Counted from the stretch's first letter, positions 3,078-17,360 are shown. The stretch: 32,000 nucleotides of DNA from Candidatus Saccharimonadota bacterium (GCA_963716945.1 OY970322.1:420001-452000), one strand, 5' to 3'. Translations and numbers: made by a program. Notes: generated from the letters alone by a model not told the origin.

Positions 3078-4181
3078 ATGTCAACAAAAGCATTAACGAT
3101 GGACGAGCTGCTGGCCGGCAGCGACGTTACCGGTTTGAGCGCCGGCGACACCGTCGAAGGCGTAGTTACGTCAATTAAGAAAAACGAGGTCTGGATCGAC
3201 CTGGGCGCCGCCGGTGTCGGGGTGGTCCTGCGCCGGGAGATCGGCTACGGCCAAAAACTCGAGCCCGGCCAAACCGTCACGGTCAGCGTTATCGACCCCG
3301 AAATCGAAGAGGGCCACGCCCTGCTCAGCATGAAGCGGGCCGTTAAGGACCGCGGCTGGGACGAGCTGCAACGGGTCCACGAGGCCAACGAAATCGTCGA
3401 GGTCGTACCCTACGACGCCAACCGGGGCGGCCTGCTGGTCGAGCTGGAAGGCATCCGCGGCTTCCTGCCGGTATCGCAGCTGGCAGCCGGCCACTACCCG
3501 CGGGTCAGCGGCGCCGACAAGGACGAAATTCTCCAGAAACTGCACGCCCTGACTAACAAGGCCCTGCGCGTTCGGGTGCTGGACGTCAGCCGCAAGGACA
3601 ACAAGCTTATCTTCTCCGAGAAGGAAGCCGTCAAAGACGACATGCAGGCCCGCTTCAGCGAGCTTAAGGTCGGCGACGTCGTCGAAGGCGTCGTTACCGG
3701 CGTGATCGACTTCGGCGCTTTCGTTAACGTCGAAGGTATCGAGGGCTTGGTCCACATTTCCGAGATTTCCTGGGAGCGGGTCGACAACCCCCGCAACTAC
3801 GTCAAAGTCGGCGAAACCGTCAAAGCCAAGATCATCGGCATCGACAAGGACCGCCTCAGCCTGAGCATCAAACAGATGAGCGAAGATCCCTGGCTGGACC
3901 AGGTCAAAGCCTTCAAGGCCGGCGATGTTGTCGAGGGTAAGGTTACCCGCATCACGCCTTTCGGGGCTTTCGTCCAGATCAGCCCGAGTGTCGAGGCGCT
4001 GGTCCACGTTTCGGAAATGAGCGATGACGACGCGGTCGACCCCGAGAAGCTGTTCCAGCTGAACGAGAAGAAGCAGTTCAAAGTCCTCGATATCGATACC
4101 GAGAACCGCAAGATTGCCCTGTCCCTCAAGGACGCCAAGTCCAAGCCGAAGCCCAAAGCTAAAGCCGAAACCAAGAAATAG
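3078..4181 (+). CDS. rpsA: 30S ribosomal protein S1 (four S1 domains)
   Basis: Repeated S1/OB motifs (G..V.G.V..I...G.FV.L.....G..H.S). SD AAGGAGG. Confidence 0.9.
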   Translation: MSTKALTMDELLAGSDVTGLSAGDTVEGVVTSIKKNEVWIDLGAAGVGVVLRREIGYGQKLEPGQTVTVSVIDPEIEEGHALLSMKRAVKDRGWDELQRVHEANEIVEVVPYDANRGGLLVELEGIRGFLPVSQLAAGHYPRVSGADKDEILQKLHALTNKALRVRVLDVSRKDNKLIFSEKEAVKDDMQARFSELKVGDVVEGVVTGVIDFGAFVNVEGIEGLVHISEISWERVDNPRNYVKVGETVKAKIIGIDKDRLSLSIKQMSEDPWLDQVKAFKAGDVVEGKVTRITPFGAFVQISPSVEALVHVSEMSDDDAVDPEKLFQLNEKKQFKVLDIDTENRKIALSLKDAKSKPKPKAKAETKK

Positions 4182-4229: not shown

Positions 4230-5999
4230 ATGAGTGACCAAACCACTATCGAAATCGAAGACATGATTACCGTCGGCACCCTGGCCGAACGGTTGTCCAT
4301 ACCCGTTTCCAGCCTGATTGGCGAACTGATGAAAAACGGTGTTATGGCGACCGTCAACGAACGGATCGACTTCGATACCGCCCAGATTATAGTCGATGAA
4401 CTCAAGCTGGATATCAAACTGGCCAAACGGGCCGCGCCCGAAGCTTCGGCGACTAAGCGGGCCAAGCCGGCCGCCAGCGCCACGGCCGCCAGCCGGCCGC
4501 CGGTCGTGGCCGTCATGGGCCACGTCGACCACGGCAAAACCAGCCTGCTGGACGCCATCCGCGGCGCCGACGTCGTCAAGGGCGAAGCCGGCGGCATTAC
4601 CCAGCATATTTCGGCCTACCAGGTTAAGCATGACGGCCGGGACATTACTTTTCTCGATACGCCGGGGCATGAGGCGTTCGCGGCCATTCGCGAACACGGG
4701 GCCTTGCTGACCGATATCGTCATTATCGTCGTGGCGGCCGATGACGGTATTAAGCCGCAGACCGTCGAAGCCATCCGTTTCGCCAAGAAAGCCGGCGTTA
4801 AGATTATCGTCGCCATCAACAAGATCGACAAAGAGGGCGCCGACCTCAACCGCATCAAGCAGCAATTATCCGAAAATGACCTCTTGATCGAGGAGTGGGG
4901 CGGCGACACCGTCGTCGTGCCGGTCTCGGCCAAGACCAAAGAGGGCATCCCCGACCTGCTGAACATGATCCTGCTGGTCACCGACGTCGAGGAGCTCAAA
5001 GCCGACACCGACGTCCAGCCCAGAGGTCTAATTATAGAGGCCCACGTCGAGCAGGGCCGCGGTCCGGTCGCCCACGCGCTGGTCGAAGCCGGCACGCTCA
5101 AGCCGGGGGATTTCATCGTCGCCGGCGGCAGTTACGCCAAGATCCGCAACCTTGAGACGACCGAGGGCAAACCGCTCAAGCAGGCCACGCCGTCGATGCC
5201 GGTCACTATTACCGGTTTCAAGACTTTGCCGGAGTTCGGCGACGAATTCACAGCCGCCAGCAATGAGAAAACGGCCCGTGCCGAAGCTTCCAAGACCGCC
5301 GCCGACAAACAGTCGACCGACGGCCACCTCGACATCGGCAGCTCCGAACTGATCCGGCTGATCAACCGCGACAACGCCATGCAGGAACTAAACATCATCG
5401 TCAAGGCCGACGTCCAGGGTTCCCTGACATCGGTTATAGACAGCCTCAAGGCCTTGGACACCGAGGAAGTTTCGGTCCGCATAGTCGGTTCCGGCATCGG
5501 CCCGGTCGGCGAGAACGACCTCCACCTGGCCCATACCAGCCACGCCATCGTTTACGGCTTCAATGTCGGCCTGTCGGCCAGCAGCCGCCAGCAAGCCGCC
5601 CGTGACAAGATAAAGATCCATCTCTACAAGGTCATCTACGAACTGATTGACGACGTCAAGGCCGAACTGTCCAACCTGCTCAGCCCGGAGATCGTCGAAA
5701 CCGAACTCGGCCGGTTGGTCATCAAAGGCATCTTCAATACGACCAAGTCTGCCGTTATCTGCGGCGGGGAAGTCACCAAAGGCAAGCTGACCGTGCCGGC
5801 CCTGGCCCGCGTCTCGCGCGACGGCGAGGAGCTGATGGAAGTCGAAGTCACCGGCCTGAAACGCGGCCCGGCCGAAGCCAAAGAAGTCGTGGAGGGCGAA
5901 ATGTGCGGCCTCAGCCTCAAGACGCCCAAGCGCCTCGACCTCCAGGAAGGCGACCGTGTCGACGTCTTCACCCGGGAGGCTATCCAGCGCCAGCTATAG
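4230..5999 (+). CDS. infB: Translation initiation factor IF-2 (short form, 589 aa)
   Basis: G-domain motifs GHVDHGKT, DTPGH and NKID. IF-2 C-terminal domains are present. SD AAGGAG. Confidence 0.95.
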   Translation: MSDQTTIEIEDMITVGTLAERLSIPVSSLIGELMKNGVMATVNERIDFDTAQIIVDELKLDIKLAKRAAPEASATKRAKPAASATAASRPPVVAVMGHVDHGKTSLLDAIRGADVVKGEAGGITQHISAYQVKHDGRDITFLDTPGHEAFAAIREHGALLTDIVIIVVAADDGIKPQTVEAIRFAKKAGVKIIVAINKIDKEGADLNRIKQQLSENDLLIEEWGGDTVVVPVSAKTKEGIPDLLNMILLVTDVEELKADTDVQPRGLIIEAHVEQGRGPVAHALVEAGTLKPGDFIVAGGSYAKIRNLETTEGKPLKQATPSMPVTITGFKTLPEFGDEFTAASNEKTARAEASKTAADKQSTDGHLDIGSSELIRLINRDNAMQELNIIVKADVQGSLTSVIDSLKALDTEEVSVRIVGSGIGPVGENDLHLAHTSHAIVYGFNVGLSASSRQQAARDKIKIHLYKVIYELIDDVKAELSNLLSPEIVETELGRLVIKGIFNTTKSAVICGGEVTKGKLTVPALARVSRDGEELMEVEVTGLKRGPAEAKEVVEGEMCGLSLKTPKRLDLQEGDRVDVFTREAIQRQL

Positions 6000-8239: not shown

Positions 8240-8285
8240 AATACTGTCGTCAAGTATACCTGAATTGCCAGATTACATTAAGGCA

Positions 8286-8314
8286 TTGATTTTTTATATA
8301 ATATAGTTTATTAT
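8286..8314 (+). promoter_or_regulatory. Promoter of the lipoprotein gene; predicted leaderless
   Basis: TTGATT-17-TATTAT, then 6 nt (ATTAGC), then ATG 8321. It sits in an AT-rich 80-bp gap. Confidence 0.5.
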
Positions 8315-8320
8315 ATTAGC

Positions 8321-9058
8321 ATGATTCGTCAATCTGTCGGTGAAGCTAAGCAGCGCGCCCTGGATGTCGGCAGGCTGCCTAAAGGCGGCTTGGCTGCTCC
8401 TATGGCTATGGCGGCTCTCGCAGCCTTAAGCTTTGCCGGCTGCGGCGGTAGCGCTAAGCGGTACGACAGCAAAACCGAAGCCTCGCTAGAGAGAACAATC
8501 CGGCCCACCATGGTAGCAATAGCTAAAAAAGCCATCAAGTTGCAGGCACGCTACCCTCAAGAGGTTTCTATCACGCGGGTGGGCAAGGGGCTGGTTGCCA
8601 TTAATGCCAATCCTTTTGCCGACGCTTATGGCAGATCGGGAGATATTCAGGTAGTCGTCGGTACGCAACCGCGGAACAGCCAACCTAACCCTGACGCCGT
8701 GATAGCCGTCTCCTTGGACACATTTGACAATCCTCCAAAAGGCGAGGGAGTACCTGGCAGCACCGGCCTGGCAATGACTTCACCGGCGGGCGGCCGGCAT
8801 GGCTATGGCGGTGTCGCTTCTCCTAACGATCACCCTGACGGCTGGTCAGCGCAAGAGGTAGGAGAAACGAGTTTGAGTGGTCCTGCTTCCAATGGTTTTG
8901 CCTTCGATTCCTCGGACTCTGATCTATTTGTAGCCGATCCCAATGATCCTACCAAGTCAGCCGGCCCGGTCGCTACGGCTCGGACTGTCGTGCAGGACGC
9001 CCTCGGTCTTTATGATAGTGTCAGTACTGTAATAGCCGAAGAAGCCGGTCAATACTAG
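8321..9058 (+). CDS. Putative lipoprotein, 245 aa, no family recognised
   Basis: Hydrophobic stretch MAMAALAALSFAG followed by Cys (lipobox-like FAGC). T-ending codons (cct, gct, ggt, gat) contrast with the C-ending codons of neighbouring core genes. Confidence 0.65.
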   Translation: MIRQSVGEAKQRALDVGRLPKGGLAAPMAMAALAALSFAGCGGSAKRYDSKTEASLERTIRPTMVAIAKKAIKLQARYPQEVSITRVGKGLVAINANPFADAYGRSGDIQVVVGTQPRNSQPNPDAVIAVSLDTFDNPPKGEGVPGSTGLAMTSPAGGRHGYGGVASPNDHPDGWSAQEVGETSLSGPASNGFAFDSSDSDLFVADPNDPTKSAGPVATARTVVQDALGLYDSVSTVIAEEAGQY

Positions 9059-10992
9059 AGTAAGTCCATCGGGTCCAGGTCATAAGCGCAGTTGGCCGGC
9101 AGGGCGGCGATTATTTTTAGCAGTTCGGAGCGCTGGCGGGCTTTGACTATGAGCTGCCACTGGTATTTGTTCTGGAAACGTTCGTAAAAAGCCGGGGCCG
9201 GCCCTTCGACCCGGACGTGGTAGCCGGTCTCTTCTATATCCGATTTTAGTTTGTCGGCGGCCTCTTCGGCGGCTTTGATCGAGGCTCGCCGGACGGACAG
9301 TTTAAGCAAATAGCAGAACGGCGGGAAGAGGAATTGCCGGCGCTCGGCCAGTTCCCGGTCGTAAAAACTCCTGTAGTCGCCCTTCAGCGCGTCAGCCAGG
9401 ACGGGATGGTCGGGATGGTAGGTTTGGATGATGGCCCGGCCGGCGATATGCCCGCGGCCGATCCGCCCCAGCACCTGGCTAATCAGTTGGAACGTCCGCT
9501 CCTGGGCGGAGAAATCGGGCATGTACAGGCTGGTGTCGGCCAGCAGCACGCCCAGGGTGCTGAGGCGGGGCAGGTCCAGGCCTTTGGCCAGCATCTGGGT
9601 GCCAACCAGGATGTCGACTTCGCCGCCGCGCACCGCTTCATAGTGTTCTTCAAAGCGTTCCGCCTTGAGGTTATCGGTGTCGAACCGGGCTACCCGGGCT
9701 TGAGGGAAGAGCCGTTTGGCCTCTTCGACGATCGCCTTGGTGCCGGCCGTTTTGAAAATGACGCTCGGGTGGCCGCAGGCCGGGCAGCTGCCGGGGGCCG
9801 GTTCATGGTGGTCGCAGCTGTGGCAGCGCAGCTCGTGGTGGTCGCCGTGGTAGGTCAGCGGCAGGTCGCAATGCGGGCAGGTCGCCTGCCAGCCGCAGTT
9901 TTCGCACATCACCAGCCGGGCAGTGCCGCGGCGGTTAAGGTAGAGCAGGGCCTGTTCGCCGCGGGCCAGGGCGCCTTCCAGGGCTTTGACCAGGGGCAGG
10001 CTCATCGACGGCGACTTGCCGAATAGGCTGTGGTCCTTGCGGTCGACCAGGACGACTTCGGTTGCGGCGTGCGGTTGGCTTTGGGCCAGCCGGGCCAGCT
10101 TGATAATCGGCTTCTGCTTAGCCTCGGCCAGGTAATAATCGCTGACCGACGGCGTGGCCGAACCCAATACCAGCGTCGAACGGCTGATCTGGGATAAATA
10201 AGCCGCCACCCGGCCGGTTTGGTACTGGGGCGCCTGCTCCTGCTTGTAAGCGTTCTCATGCGACTCGTCGAGGACTATCAGGCCGGGTTTGGCCAGCGGG
10301 CTGAACAGGGCCGAACGCGGCCCAATGACAACCATCGGTTCGGCGGCGCGCAGGCTGTCGAGCCAGGCTTTTTGGCGCTCGGCCGGGGTTTGCCGGGAAT
10401 GCATAACTATAACCCGGTCGCCGAAGACCTGGCGGAAGTTGCCCCCGAGCTGGGCGGTCAGGCTGATTTCCGGCGTTAGTACGATGGCCGATTTACCGTC
10501 CGCGACCTGGCGGGCGGCCAGTTCGACGTACAGCCTGGTCTTGCCGCTGCCGGTTATGCCGTGCAGCAGGTAGCTGTCGCGCTCGCCCATAGCCTCCAAG
10601 GCTATCTGCTGTTCATCCGTCAGCGTCGGCAAGGAGCTTAGGTCGGGGGCGGCCAGTTTGGGCGGCTTGACCGGGGCCAGCTGTTTATCTGAAAAATGGG
10701 CCGGCAACAGCTGCTGGGTAATCAGCCCCAGCGGGGCGGGGTAGTAAGCCGCCAGCCAGGCGGCCAGCTTCAGGAGGTGGGCCGGCACCGGCGGCAGGTC
10801 AAAAACCCGGGCCACCGGCTTGGTCTTGAAGCGCGGCTCGCTGGTCGGTCCGCTGACCAGGCCCAGGACCAATTCGCGCTGCAGTTCGACTTCGACGACG
10901 CTGCCGGTCGGCAGGCGCCGCTCGCTGGCGTAGGTCAGCGGGTCGCTGCTATGGTAGCGGTTGCTGCGCACCCACACGAAATAATAATTCAT
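9055..10992 (-). CDS. priA: Primosomal protein N' (replication restart helicase PriA)
   Basis: Walker A GITGSGKT, a DESH box, and the Cys-rich zinc-binding insert CENCGWQATCPHCDLPLTYH...CHSC...CPACG. Confidence 0.95.
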   Translation of the reverse strand: MNYYFVWVRSNRYHSSDPLTYASERRLPTGSVVEVELQRELVLGLVSGPTSEPRFKTKPVARVFDLPPVPAHLLKLAAWLAAYYPAPLGLITQQLLPAHFSDKQLAPVKPPKLAAPDLSSLPTLTDEQQIALEAMGERDSYLLHGITGSGKTRLYVELAARQVADGKSAIVLTPEISLTAQLGGNFRQVFGDRVIVMHSRQTPAERQKAWLDSLRAAEPMVVIGPRSALFSPLAKPGLIVLDESHENAYKQEQAPQYQTGRVAAYLSQISRSTLVLGSATPSVSDYYLAEAKQKPIIKLARLAQSQPHAATEVVLVDRKDHSLFGKSPSMSLPLVKALEGALARGEQALLYLNRRGTARLVMCENCGWQATCPHCDLPLTYHGDHHELRCHSCDHHEPAPGSCPACGHPSVIFKTAGTKAIVEEAKRLFPQARVARFDTDNLKAERFEEHYEAVRGGEVDILVGTQMLAKGLDLPRLSTLGVLLADTSLYMPDFSAQERTFQLISQVLGRIGRGHIAGRAIIQTYHPDHPVLADALKGDYRSFYDRELAERRQFLFPPFCYLLKLSVRRASIKAAEEAADKLKSDIEETGYHVRVEGPAPAFYERFQNKYQWQLIVKARQRSELLKIIAALPANCAYDLDPMDLL

Positions 10993-13493: not shown

Positions 13494-13523
13494 TTGCCCT
13501 TGGGGAAACAATAGCGCTATACT
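13494..13523 (+). promoter_or_regulatory. Promoter of ftsA
   Basis: TTGCCC-18-TATACT. The -10 box ends at 13523, so the GTG at 13524 cannot be on the transcript. ATG 13533 lies ~3 nt from the predicted start site. Confidence 0.5.
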
Positions 13524-13532
13524 GTGGGCCAG

Positions 13533-14762
13533 ATGAACGGTTCAAACCAAGATTACTTCATAGGCATCGATATCGGCACCAGTACTGTTCGCTGCGTTGT
13601 CGGTATGTATGACCCCAACGGCAGCAACATGCCTTCCATAATCGGCCACGGCCAGGCGCCCAACCAGGGCATGCGCCGCGGCGCGGTCGTCCACGTCGAC
13701 GAGGTCGCCGACGCCATCGTGCACGCCGTTACCGAAGCCGAACGGATTTCCGGCATGTCGATCAAGCGGGCGACGGTTAACGTTAACGGCGCCCATGTCA
13801 GTGGCCTCAATTCCGAAGGCGTTATCGCTATCAGCGCCGCCAACCGCGAAATTACCACCGAGGACCGTTTGCGGGTCGAAGAAGCCGCTACCATCGTCAG
13901 CCTGCCGCCGAACCGCGAGATCGTCCAGTTCTTCGCCAAGAACTACAGCCTCGACGGCCAGCGCAATATCAAGGACCCGGTCGGCATGCACGGCGTCCGC
14001 CTGGAAGTCGACGCCCATATCGTCACGGCCTCTTCGCCCAATTTGCGCAACCTTGACCAGGCGCTCGAGAAGGCCGAGATCATGCCGACCCACCACACCG
14101 TTTCCGGCCTGGCGGCGGCCGAAGCCGTTATGACACGCCAGCAAAAAGAAGCCGGTACCGCCCTGATCGACATCGGCGCCGGCACGACCAACCTGATCGT
14201 TTTCGAGGACGGCGAAGTCCAGTACGTGTCCGTCCTGCCGATCGGCGGCCAGCATATCACCAACGACCTGGCTATCGGCCTCAAGACCGACCTTGATATC
14301 GCCGAAGCCGTCAAACTGGAACACGCCAGCCTGCGCAGCGGTGCCAAGAAAACCACCGCCACCGTCAAAATCGGCAACAAGACCCACAACTTCGACTTCG
14401 AAGAAATCTCGATGATCGTCGAAGCCCGGGCCGAAGAGCTCCTGGAATACGTCGACAAAGAGCTGCAGAAGATCAAGCGTTCGCGCAAACTCCCCGGCGG
14501 CATCGTCCTGACCGGCGGCACCTCCAAACTGCCCGGCATCGACGAACTGGCCCGCGAAAAGCTCCAGCTGCCGGCCCGCATCGGCAAGCTCCACAACATC
14601 GGCGGCCTGGTCGACACCGTCGAAGACCAGGCATTCGTCACGGTCGTCGGCCTGATGCTGCTCGATATGCTGCTGTTGCCGAACCTGCCGCCGGGCGCCG
14701 GCAACAAAACCGAAAATGCCCGCGCTTTCTTAGACGGCATGTTCCACCGTTTCCGCCGCTAG
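13533..14762 (+). CDS. ftsA: Cell division protein FtsA
   Basis: Actin-like ATPase motifs IGIDIGTSTVRCVVG and DIGAGTTN...GG. The start is moved from GTG 13524 to ATG 13533 because of the promoter position. Confidence 0.9.
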   Translation: MNGSNQDYFIGIDIGTSTVRCVVGMYDPNGSNMPSIIGHGQAPNQGMRRGAVVHVDEVADAIVHAVTEAERISGMSIKRATVNVNGAHVSGLNSEGVIAISAANREITTEDRLRVEEAATIVSLPPNREIVQFFAKNYSLDGQRNIKDPVGMHGVRLEVDAHIVTASSPNLRNLDQALEKAEIMPTHHTVSGLAAAEAVMTRQQKEAGTALIDIGAGTTNLIVFEDGEVQYVSVLPIGGQHITNDLAIGLKTDLDIAEAVKLEHASLRSGAKKTTATVKIGNKTHNFDFEEISMIVEARAEELLEYVDKELQKIKRSRKLPGGIVLTGGTSKLPGIDELAREKLQLPARIGKLHNIGGLVDTVEDQAFVTVVGLMLLDMLLLPNLPPGAGNKTENARAFLDGMFHRFRR

Positions 14763-14765
14763 AAC

Positions 14766-15434
14766 TTATCTTTGCTGGGCTATGCCAGCTGGGCCGTCAA
14801 TATTATCGAGTTGCCGAAGGTACGGGCCCATCTGCAGCCGCTGGGTTTCGAGAACGCTGCCCGCCACTAAGCAGAGAGCAAATATTCCCGCGGGGGCACC
14901 TAGCACATCCGTACCATTACTGGCTACGACCGGGCCAATCTTACCGCTCTCAAGGTTTTCATGAACTTTGACCAAAGCTCCGGCCATAGCGCCGCCGCCG
15001 AATGAGCCGAGCTGTTGCAAGAACAAGGCGTAGGGTACATTAGCCGACCGGGGGCTAAAGCTCGTAGGGCCTTCTAAGACTTTGGCTTGGGGGTCGCGCC
15101 TTGATTTAACAGATAACCGGCCGTCTTTTACCACCAATTCTTCACGTACCATGGGTGAGCGGTCGTCAGGCTTCGTAGCCCTGTAGTCACTTATAAGGCC
15201 GTTTATACTGGCACGCGCCCGTTTGCGGGTTACGAAAGCTGACGCTATGCCTGGTATGGAAACAGCGCTCCACCCCAGTTTTTCTGACTCCATAGCACCA
15301 AATAGCGACACGCTGGCTATAACAGCGGATACCCGGGCAACCCTATTGGCGCGGCGTAAGTTTGCCCTAATACCATTTTCGACATTCGCGCGCTCCGCTA
15401 AGACGGGCCGCTTAGGCCGGCTAACTCTACTCAT
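14766..15434 (-). CDS. Hypothetical membrane protein, 222 aa, antisense between ftsA and ftsZ
   Basis: Basic N-terminus followed by hydrophobic segments (VSAVIASVSLFGAM, GIFALCLVAGSVL). A perfect consensus promoter lies 8 nt upstream of the ATG. A/T-ending codons (tta, ata, gta, agt, agg) are atypical for the window. Confidence 0.65.
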   Translation of the reverse strand: MSRVSRPKRPVLAERANVENGIRANLRRANRVARVSAVIASVSLFGAMESEKLGWSAVSIPGIASAFVTRKRARASINGLISDYRATKPDDRSPMVREELVVKDGRLSVKSRRDPQAKVLEGPTSFSPRSANVPYALFLQQLGSFGGGAMAGALVKVHENLESGKIGPVVASNGTDVLGAPAGIFALCLVAGSVLETQRLQMGPYLRQLDNIDGPAGIAQQR

Positions 15435-15442
15435 AATAGCAG

Positions 15443-15471
15443 ATTATAACAAGTAATACAGTATTTGTCAA
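15443..15471 (-). promoter_or_regulatory. Perfect consensus sigma70 promoter; leaderless transcript for CDS 14766-15434
   Basis: - strand TTGACA (15471-15466), 17-nt spacer, TATAAT (15448-15443), then 8 nt (CTGCTATT), then ATG 15434. Confidence 0.75.
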
Positions 15472-15593
15472 AGGCAGACTCTCTGAATTATTAGGCCAGA
15501 GCCGGTGTTGAATACAAAATTCAAACCGGCGCGTACATAAATGAACTACTGGCCCGCCGCCCAAAATACTCGAAAAACGCCCGGATAAATTTG

Positions 15594-15622
15594 TTGAACT
15601 TTCAGGGGAGCTGGCGTATACT
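15594..15622 (+). promoter_or_regulatory. Promoter of ftsZ
   Basis: TTGAAC-17-TATACT. SD GAGGGGA lies before ATG 15664. Confidence 0.6.
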
Positions 15623-15663
15623 ACGGCGTATATCAGGTAGGTTTTGAGGGAAAGAGGGGATAC

Positions 15664-17067
15664 ATGCCACAAGTAGTTGAGCCAGCTATCGAGACATTCG
15701 CGCAGATCAAGGTAATCGGCGTCGGCGGCGCCGGCGGCGCCGCTATCAACCGCATGGTTGACGCCGGTATCGAGAACGTCGAGTTTATCGCTGTCAATAC
15801 TGACGCCCAAGCCTTGCACCACTCCCGGGCTAACAAGAAGATCCACATCGGCAAAGAAGCCACCCGCGGCCTCGGCGCCGGCGCCGACCCGGCTGCCGGT
15901 GAACGGGCTGCCGAAGAATCCAAGGAAGATATCCGCCAGGCTATCGAAGGCGCCGATATGGTCTTCGTCACGATTGGCGCCGGCGGCGGTACCGGCAGCG
16001 GCGGCGGCCATGTGGTCGCTAGGATTGCCAGCGAAATGGGCATTCTGGTGGTCGGTTTCGCGACCAAACCCTTCGCTTTCGAAGGCGAGAAGCGCCGCAA
16101 GAACGCCGAAGTCGCCATCGACAAGCTGCGCGGCTCGGTCGACACTTTGATCATCATTCCCAACGACCGCTTGCTTCAGACCATCGACCGCGACACGCCG
16201 CTGACCGAAGCCTTCAAAGTCGCCGACGATGTTCTGCGCCAGGGCGTTCAGGGCATTTCCGACCTCATCACCGTCCACGGACTGATTAACCTCGACTTTG
16301 CCGATGTCAAAGCCGTCATGAGCAAAGCCGGTTCGGCCCTGATGGGTATCGGCCGCGCTTCCGGCGAAAACCGGGCCGTCACGGCCGCCCAGCAGGCCAT
16401 CGAGTCGCCGTTGCTGGAAGTCTCCATCGACGGTGCCCGCGGCATCCTCTTCAATGTCATCGGCGGCAACGACCTGGCGATGCACGAAATCAACGCCGCC
16501 GCCGAAGCTATCACGACGGCCGCCGACCCCGATGCCAACATTATATTCGGCGCGACGATCAACCCGGAATTGGACGGCGAGGTCATTATTACCGTCGTCG
16601 CCACCGGTTTCGACGCCTCTTACTTCGCCAAGCGGACCGGCGAGTCCGGCAGTTCGGCCGCCGCCCGGCCCAAGGCCGTGCCCTCGCTGGACAACGACAC
16701 TAGCGTAACTACCGCCAAGCAGGACGAGAAAGCTCTTGCCGAAATCGACATGAACCTGGACGACGGCCAAGCCGCCGAACATGACTTCACCCGCGAAACG
16801 CCGATGCCCAACATCTGGTCTATCAATGACGATGAGGACGAGGAGTCTGACGACAAAGCCAAACCGTCCGGCAGCCCGGACAAAGATGACGCCGAGGACA
16901 CCAACGGTGAGCGCGACGCCCACGGCGAAGTCGTTACCAGCAGCCTCGAAGACGAATTAGAGAAACCGTCATTCCTGCGCCGCCTCGGCCGCCGCCACAA
17001 AGATGACGCCGATAAGGACAAAGACGACGACAAAGATTCGGATTCGGACTCGGACAGCAAATCTTAG
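15664..17067 (+). CDS. ftsZ: Cell division protein FtsZ with a long acidic linker and an extended acidic C-terminal tail
   Basis: Tubulin signature [15 protein letters not shown], and a C-terminal conserved peptide (LEKPSFLRR). Confidence 0.95.
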
Positions 17068-17159
17068 AATATTCCGTCCGGAACGCCGCTCCGCGGTACT
17101 TCGCCTACGGCTCGTACGCTCCAGGGATTAGCGCTCCGGAACGGAATATCCTAAGATTT
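17059..17159. repeat. Imperfect ~28-bp inverted repeat separated by 44 bp, overlapping the ftsZ stop codon
   Basis: Left arm AAATCTTAGAATATTCCGTCCGGAACGC (17059-17086). Right arm GCGCTCCGGAACGGAATATCCTAAGATTT (17131-17159). The spacer contains CGCTCC twice and a third copy lies in the right arm (17132-17137). No U tract follows. Confidence 0.7.
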
Positions 17160-17200: not shown

Positions 17201-17255
17201 TTGCAAAGCACTATACATGGGGGTATATTAGAGACACGCAGCACTATATGTGGAA
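17201..17255 (+). promoter_or_regulatory. nrdR-nrdJ promoter overlapped by two tandem NrdR boxes
   Basis: TTGCAA (17201-17206), 17-nt spacer, TATATT (17224-17229). Box 1 GCACTATACATGG (17208-17220) lies in the spacer. Box 2 GCACTATATGTGG (17241-17253) lies at about +5. The boxes are offset by 33 bp. Both resemble the NrdR-box palindrome acaCwAtATaTwGtgt. Confidence 0.7.
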
Positions 17256-17360
17256 AACCAAATATCATATAGCAAGGTAAATGCTGAGCACATTTAATGG
17301 TAAGGGAAACGCCCGCCGGGCCTAAAACCGGGCGCTCGTTTCCAATGAATAGGAGGCAGC

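Follow-up and report, generated by a model that had tools for sequence, protein, structure and literature searches.

The gene between ftsA and ftsZ

The DNA analyzed here, called the window below, is a stretch of 32,000 nucleotides (nt) from Candidatus Saccharimonadota bacterium (GCA_963716945.1 OY970322.1:420001-452000), a housekeeping region of a Saccharimonadales genome (Saccharibacteria, candidate phyla radiation, CPR). Within it, the division genes ftsA and ftsZ, members of the division and cell wall (dcw) cluster, are 901 bp apart, ftsA ending at 14762 and ftsZ starting at 15664. The original prediction, made from the DNA alone, stated that ~900 bp separate the two genes and that the gap contains an opposite-strand open reading frame (ORF) of 222 amino acids (aa), convergent with ftsA across 3 nt. 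All of this was confirmed: the ORF, here named orfX, occupies 14766-15434 on the minus strand, and the two stop codons lie 3 nt apart. We consider it likely that orfX is a real accessory gene that was acquired recently, located in a spacer between two separately transcribed division genes, and not a division component. The main features of the locus are as follows.

13524..14762, plus strand: ftsA (Pfam FtsA, 1.4e-34; SHS2_FTSA, 8.6e-25), with a mechanical start at GTG 13524 and a likely start at ATG 13533
14763..15509, no strand: 747-bp insert between the ftsA stop and motif A (a conserved element upstream of ftsZ), comprising orfX, an 8-nt spacer, the promoter, and 38 nt upstream
14766-15434, minus strand: orfX, encoding a 222-aa protein of a rare uncharacterized family (ORF call, homologues, alignment, hydropathy)
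15443..15471, minus strand: predicted orfX promoter TTGACA-17-(TG)TATAAT, hexamer match 12/12 with TG extension
15664..17067, plus strand: ftsZ (Pfam Tubulin, 1.7e-49; FtsZ_C, 7.6e-35)

Is orfX a gene? Among the six frames of this region, that of orfX scores highest in codon usage and contains only the terminal stop, while each of the other five frames contains 3 to 17. The codon usage is atypical, as claimed originally: GC content at third codon positions (GC3) is 0.55, compared to 0.72 to 0.81 in most core genes (0.65 in nrdR), and the codon log-odds are ~0 compared to 0.2 to 0.7 in most core genes. A lack of homologues anywhere had been named as evidence against the original prediction; two full-length ones were found. 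They were the only matches when 1.84 billion representatives, drawn from a collection built from ~15 billion proteins, were searched exhaustively with phmmer. P0002 has 210 aa (E = 1.6e-4) and P0003 has 192 aa (E = 6.5e-4), and each aligns with orfX over essentially the whole length. Pairwise BLASTP comparisons among the three proteins are all colinear, with 26 to 29% identity (E = 1e-10, 5e-13, and 2e-9), and the start methionines coincide in the alignment. In all three members, 8 to 10 of the first 35 residues are lysine or arginine (K/R), and an R-V-S/A-R/K motif runs into a pair of moderately hydrophobic segments. Also conserved are a loop with R-x-R, which reads RKR in two members, a GLISDYR-like motif, a KDG motif, hydrophobic C-terminal segments rich in Gly, and a C-terminal LDN(I/V)(D/E)G motif that reads LDNIDG in orfX.

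The family is very rare. A word-indexed search of 5.8 billion proteins retrieved only orfX itself, recorded from one 1.10-Mb contig, when queried with the protein and just the three known members when queried with the family profile, and scans of metagenome and viral contigs with the same profile added no further members. No matches to orfX were obtained in Pfam, NCBIfam, PHROGs, or PADLOC; the profile search that the original prediction had proposed, run here against PDB, gave nothing below E = 0.29; and Rfam has no family in the ftsA-ftsZ gap. The full-length colinear homologues, shared motifs, aligned starts, open frame, and promoter at the ATG indicate that, by these sequence criteria, orfX is a real protein-coding gene of a family for which three members were found.

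The product was originally described as a membrane protein with a basic N terminus and several hydrophobic segments. The ORF does have 10 K/R among its first 35 residues and hydrophobic segments at ~32 to 50, 54 to 68, and 177 to 195; in Kyte-Doolittle profiles with 19-residue windows, the scores are 2.17 for residues 177-195 and 1.34 for residues 32-50, and the hydrophobic pattern is kept in all three family members. Hydropathy and the basic N terminus suggest a membrane-type product. The AlphaFold2 model contains an N-terminal helical hairpin at residues 15 to 86 (helices 15-50 and 54-86), a beta-hairpin at 96 to 113, and C-terminal helices; the predicted local distance difference test score (pLDDT) within the helical hairpin is 59 to 79 in the core (~residues 11 to 50) and 53 to 74 in the remainder. 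Foldseek comparison of this low-confidence model with PDB yielded just generic or de novo helical bundles with E of at least 0.2, which were dismissed as meaningless.

A textbook consensus promoter 8 nt from the ATG had also been proposed, and TTGACA-17-TATAAT matches at 12/12 positions at 15471..15443 on the minus strand. Two sites with TTGACA-17-TATAAT at no more than one mismatch occur in the window, compared to 0.05 expected from shuffled sequences. The spacer between the -10 element and the ATG at 15434 consists of 8 nt, CTGCTATT, and no Shine-Dalgarno sequence (SD) is present ahead of the start, where the sequence upstream of the spacer is the promoter itself. Given this spacing and the lack of an SD, the gene is probably leaderless, in line with the original prediction. 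The same arrangement is found elsewhere in the window, with -10 elements ending 6 to 9 nt from the ATG of ftsA and of the genes at 8321, 27376, and 2862, as well as at genes occupying the ftsA-ftsZ gap of two related loci (L006 and L014, described below) and at the homologue P0003. Because these genes share the layout, it appears to be the usual style of the lineage and not an oddity of orfX. Leaderless genes with a -10 element 6 to 9 nt from the start codon are common in Actinobacteria and Deinococcus-Thermus. With TATAAT 8 nt before the ATG and no SD, orfX resembles them, as do ftsA and other genes of the lineage, and its mRNA is predicted to be leaderless. Our literature search retrieved no description of leaderless initiation in Saccharibacteria.

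Insertion boundaries and the same spacer in related genomes

The window was compared with the best 80 FtsZ-bearing loci of the genome collection (L001 to L080), nearly all of which come from metagenome-assembled genomes of Saccharibacteria; loci with FtsA at least 80% identical to that of the window are referred to as the closest subclade. The closest relative, L001, shows 96% identity in FtsA, 88% in FtsZ, and ~86% at the DNA level. Homology to L001 ends at 14761 and returns at 15587, and homology to L002 returns at 15510. Since homology returns at motif A, which lies close to the ftsA stop in six uninterrupted relatives, the insert in the window spans 14763-15509. A tblastn search for orfX in the 80 related loci found none. 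The proposal of a recent insertion is supported by the absence of the gene from all 79 relatives, including the one with 96% FtsA identity, by its atypical GC3, and by the occurrence of its homologues in unrelated contexts. Repeats marking the boundaries of a mobile element were sought around the insert, and only short, chance-level ones were found; descent of orfX from the TauE and inositol monophosphatase genes of L001 or from any other gene in this slot was discarded for want of blastp, tblastx, or blastn similarity.

The contexts of the two homologues are different from that of orfX. In L081 (6313-8633), P0002 has an SD and lies directly downstream of a gene whose 554-aa product has a metalloprotease-like HExxH motif; the position and the SD suggest that the two may be cotranscribed. 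The contig also has infC-rpmI-rplT. In L083 (2310-3285), P0003 sits with a 110-aa orphan between grpE and dnaK, another usually adjacent pair that has been split. Neither contig shares a gene with the window or with the 80 loci. The data did not sustain the idea of orfX as a divisome or regulatory component specific to the lineage, as the family has no conserved linkage to ftsA or ftsZ and no match in Pfam, NCBIfam, PHROGs, PADLOC, or PDB.

How often is the ftsA-ftsZ pair interrupted? A comparison of synteny at this junction, suggested originally and carried out here, shows a median gap of 155 bp, with 64 to 330 bp in most relatives. The gap reaches at least 400 bp in 6/16 loci of the closest subclade, all with different contents. 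The genes found in the slot, termed cargo here, are listed by locus.

L001, minus strand: TauE/SafE exporter and a gene of the inositol monophosphatase family
L003, plus strand: 308-aa acidic protein
L006, plus strand: ORF of ~80 to 90 aa
L012, plus strand: 156-aa protein
L014, plus strand: 342-aa protein
L015, minus strand: 340-aa protein
L038, a more distant relative: 179-aa protein

The cargo of these seven loci is mutually unrelated, and each was found in its own locus only among the loci examined. In every case the GC3 of the sister cargo is below that of the host ftsZ, by 0.06 to 0.31. Several cargo genes have near-consensus promoters of their own directly past the ftsA stop: TTGACA-16-TATAAT in L003 (~4450-4490), TTGACT-17-TATTAT in L006 (~2300-2345; 7 nt to the ATG), and TTTGTA-17-TAAAAT in L014 (~4770-4810; 7 nt to the ATG).

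The split of ftsA and ftsZ had been presented as exceptional, a premise that finds no support in this subclade, where adjacent spacers gain inserts at similar rates. Among close relatives, insertions of at least 400 nt were found between map and ftsA in 5/14 loci, between ftsZ and nrdR in 4/14, and between ftsA and ftsZ in 6/16. Over all loci, insertions of 400 to 1,000 nt number 11/71 for map-ftsA and 5/76 for ftsZ-nrdR and are concentrated in the closest subclade. The window itself holds a second lineage-specific insert, at 8262-9064. The ORF that it carries, at 8321-9058 on the plus strand, has a GC3 of 0.53, starts with an ATG 6 nt past a TTGATT-17-TATTAT promoter, and encodes a 245-aa orphan whose signal is lipoprotein-like (ALSFAGC). 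This orphan has no Pfam match; L002 and L005 lack it, and their def and priA genes nearly adjoin. The gene order of the window, with Pfam support, is the end of the 23S rRNA/5S rRNA, ROK kinase, S1, IF-2, DUF5663, fmt, and def; the orphan at 8321-9058, priA, yqeY, adk, map, ftsA, orfX, and ftsZ; and nrdR, class II ribonucleotide reductase, ileS, L21, parA, parB, lepB, and LytR. The pattern in the window is one of single accessory genes gained in the spacers that separate core genes with transcription of their own.

Genomes of G1 Saccharibacteria are described as highly syntenic (PMC8764695). Our own literature search retrieved nothing on breaks of ftsA-ftsZ synteny in Saccharibacteria. The closest known parallel is provided by strain-specific orphan genes in small islets between syntenic core genes. 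Like these, orfX is absent from close relatives with intact flanks, has an atypical codon composition, its own promoter, and homologues elsewhere, and occupies a slot with varied cargo in sister genomes. It differs in that mobility genes, tRNAs, and repeats at the boundaries are missing and in that a single 0.75-kb gene splits the usually adjacent ftsA-ftsZ pair.

Promoters and upstream elements of ftsA and ftsZ

The regulatory features that flank orfX on either side are listed below.

13494..13523, plus strand: promoter-like site of ftsA, TTGCCC-18-TATACT, ending 9 nt before ATG 13533
15501..15530, no strand: imperfect inverted repeat GCCGGTGTTGAAT/ATTCAAACCGGC, window specific, enclosing motif A
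15510..15521, plus strand: motif A, GAATACAAAATT (GAAYACAAAAWT), a conserved 12-nt element upstream of ftsZ, at the right edge of the insertion slot
15531..15542, plus strand: motif B, GCGTACATAAAT (GYRYACAWAAAT), a second conserved element upstream of ftsZ
15594..15622, plus strand: ftsZ promoter TTGAAC-17-TATACT, ancestral and conserved across the order
15654..15659, plus strand: SD of ftsZ, GAGGGG, 4 nt before the ATG; a purine-rich SD is seen in the alignment of relatives

The ftsA promoter of the relatives, cTTGCC-N17/18-GCGcTATACT, lies 6 to 9 nt before the ATG in 50/54 cases. Because this conserved promoter ends 9 nt before ATG 13533 in the window, ftsA is probably leaderless, and ATG 13533 is likely its true start, whereas the GTG at 13524, assigned mechanically, probably is not. 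For ftsZ, nearly all relatives, whether they carry an insert or not, have the promoter AAATTTGTTGAAC-17-TATACT at 57 to 86 nt from the ATG. The original prediction, that ftsZ consequently has its own promoter, is correct in that TTGAAC-17-TATACT exists but not in its causal part: the promoter is kept in relatives that are mostly free of inserts, so it is ancestral and older than the insertion. Judged from these conserved promoters, ftsA and ftsZ are separate transcription units in this order; with a promoter for each gene, the pair would be transcriptionally uncoupled and the spacer tolerant of insertions. Compared to the canonical dcw operon, the order ftsA then ftsZ, the shared strand, and the distance of 64 to 330 bp in most relatives are alike, whereas the separate conserved promoters, the apparently leaderless ftsA, and the SD-led ftsZ are different. 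At the other end of ftsZ, a long inverted repeat (CTTAGAATATTCCGTCCGGAACG ... CTCCGGAACGGAATATCCTAAG) occurs at 17063-17157, right after the stop, and may be a 3' structure or terminator of this gene.

Motif A occurs once in the window; of its 12 exact matches within 914 kb of related loci, 11 are located at this position upstream of ftsZ. It is found 127 to 188 nt before the ftsZ ATG throughout the close subclade, whether or not an insert is present. Its distance from ftsA varies: 2 to 13 nt past the stop codon in six relatives without an insert (L002, L004, L005, L009, L020, and L021), 47 nt in L007, 129 nt in L011, and 311 to 1,761 nt in insert-bearing relatives. The fixed distance from the ftsZ promoter, also in uninterrupted genomes, fits a regulatory element of ftsZ. 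Motif B lies ~115 to 135 nt before the ftsZ ATG, with variable A-to-B spacing (window and L001 to L033). Motifs A and B may be regulator-binding sites for ftsZ. They were compared with NrdR boxes and rejected as such, the actual NrdR-box-like pair upstream of nrdR (GCACTATAYRTGG) being different; a DnaA box and dif were also considered and were dropped because no match was seen. The NrdR-box-like sites themselves, GCACTATACATGG and GCACTATATGTGG, are located ~33 nt apart at window positions 17205-17260, upstream of nrdR, and overlap promoter-like hexamers.

Around motif A, the inverted repeat at 15501-15530 folds with -15.4 kcal/mol and one bulged base (z = -3.3 compared to shuffles). Motif A forms the inner stem and the loop, and the outer GC arms (GCCGGT/ACCGGC) are window specific. 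No run of T follows on either strand, the repeat is absent from the list produced by the terminator scan, and no equivalent hairpin surrounds motif A in 19 relatives. The original prediction of a hairpin or operator-like repeat between the divergent promoters therefore holds as far as the repeat itself is concerned, but the operator part does not, since the hairpin is unconserved and without a U-tract, and only the enclosed motif is conserved. Other structures are seen at this junction in relatives. Canonical terminators are present between motifs A and B in some of them (L003 and L033), and the otherwise gene-free 256-bp ftsA-ftsZ gap of L011, a close relative, has two tandem copies of a palindrome, ATACTCAAATTTGAGTAT, at ~3830-3880.

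Origin and possible role of orfX

In the account that we favor, the consensus sigma-70-type promoter of orfX would give rise to a leaderless mRNA with a 5' untranslated region of 0 to 3 nt. The product would be anchored in the membrane by the N-terminal helical hairpin, with the basic N terminus and the RKRAR loop in the cytoplasm according to the positive-inside rule, and one or two of the Gly-rich C-terminal helices may be inserted as well. Its role would be a strain-specific one in the envelope or in host interaction and not in division. The only likely effect on the division genes would be incidental: as there is no terminator between orfX and ftsA, convergent transcription could disturb the 3' end of ftsA. 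With no mobility genes or terminal repeats present, the segment was most likely acquired through homologous recombination across its conserved flanks, ftsA and ftsZ.

Several points weigh against this account. No integrase, transposase, or tRNA was found in the window and no flanking repeat at the insert. With the closest relative at ~86% DNA identity, "recent" means since species-level divergence. Promoter use, the leaderless start, and translation of orfX are all deduced from the DNA. The membrane prediction is based on Kyte-Doolittle profiles only, both N-terminal hydrophobic segments are marginal in them (1.3 to 1.7), and the AlphaFold2 model is poor (pLDDT of 53; shallow alignment of 3 sequences). 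Finally, adjacency to ftsA and ftsZ would in itself be compatible with a functional interaction.

Could orfX nevertheless be part of the division machinery? Small membrane proteins encoded in the dcw cluster are often division factors, and the position between ftsA and ftsZ, together with a membrane-type build and a basic, presumably cytoplasmic tail, would suit a lineage-specific divisome or division-regulating membrane protein, such as a tether or inhibitor of FtsZ or FtsA, kept there by shared function. We regard this as very unlikely, because orfX is missing in all relatives, the closest included, its sole two homologues adjoin grpE/dnaK or the gene for an HExxH protein and not division genes, sister genomes fill the slot with unrelated cargo such as a TauE exporter and an inositol monophosphatase, and no known divisome family matches it. 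Compared to the small membrane proteins of the dcw cluster and divisome (bitopic proteins of the FtsL/FtsB/FtsQ type, ZipA, EzrA, SepF, and CrgA), orfX is alike in neighborhood, small size, and predicted helices but has no sequence or profile similarity, no division synteny, and homologues elsewhere. Alternatively, transcription itself might be the function, with the head-on promoter tuning ftsA by interference or antisense RNA and the hairpin at 15501-15530 insulating ftsZ. The perfect-consensus promoter and the stable hairpin between the promoters would agree with such a device, as would the ftsA/orfX junction, which has no terminator-like structure (fold z of +0.2 to +0.6); a bidirectional terminator had been considered there and was rejected because folding is no better than in shuffles. 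However, the family is conserved as a protein in other contexts, one of them same-strand and operon-like (P0002), which argues that the protein is what selection acts on. The hairpin is neither conserved nor followed by a U-tract, and sister cargo is found on either strand, so orientation against ftsA is no conserved feature of the slot. We consider a primarily transcriptional function improbable.

The remaining alternatives question either the gene or the slot. If the ORF were spurious, the 900 bp would be either a noncoding spacer or the remains of a pseudogene, with a promoter driving a noncoding RNA or nothing. Its orphan status in the word-indexed search, the lack of any family match, and codon log-odds near zero are what this explanation would expect, yet the pair of homologues that align colinearly over the full length and share motifs and start positions, the stops in every other frame, the promoter exactly at the ATG, and the absence of an Rfam match make it extremely unlikely. 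It is also conceivable, with a very low probability, that site-specific integration takes place between the ftsA stop and motif A (at an att-like site or in a cassette array), orfX being one of several exchangeable cassettes. At least seven different cargos share a right boundary at the position-specific motif A, and several have their own promoters. On the other hand, the 32-kb window encodes no integrase or recombinase, no direct or inverted repeats flank the cassette, neighboring spacers without motif A take inserts at a similar frequency, and motif A is present in uninterrupted genomes too, at a constant distance from the ftsZ promoter.

A bolder version, in which we place little confidence, would treat the junction from the ftsA stop to GAAYACAAAAWT as a preferred "safe harbour" in one soil subclade of Saccharimonadales, where diverse single-gene cassettes, self-promoted and often leaderless, are swapped, perhaps by natural transformation with ftsA and ftsZ as homology arms, and where cargo such as orfX is selected because its expression next to the division genes and head-on to them links it to the cell cycle or modulates the level of FtsA. 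We return instead to orfX as an acquired accessory gene. If that is true, its meaning is mainly one of caution, namely, that in these CPR genomes a break between ftsA and ftsZ does not equal a new part of the divisome. The by-products of the analysis (the promoters of ftsA and ftsZ, the leaderless ftsA, the ftsZ motifs, and the insertion-prone spacers) may outweigh orfX in usefulness: the separate promoters and the apparently leaderless ftsA bear on the regulation of division genes in ultrasmall epibionts, and the insertion-prone spacers would point to natural neutral sites for genetic engineering. The self-promoted orphans between the core genes of this subclade would, in turn, offer a view of how reduced, syntenic genomes acquire strain-specific envelope proteins.

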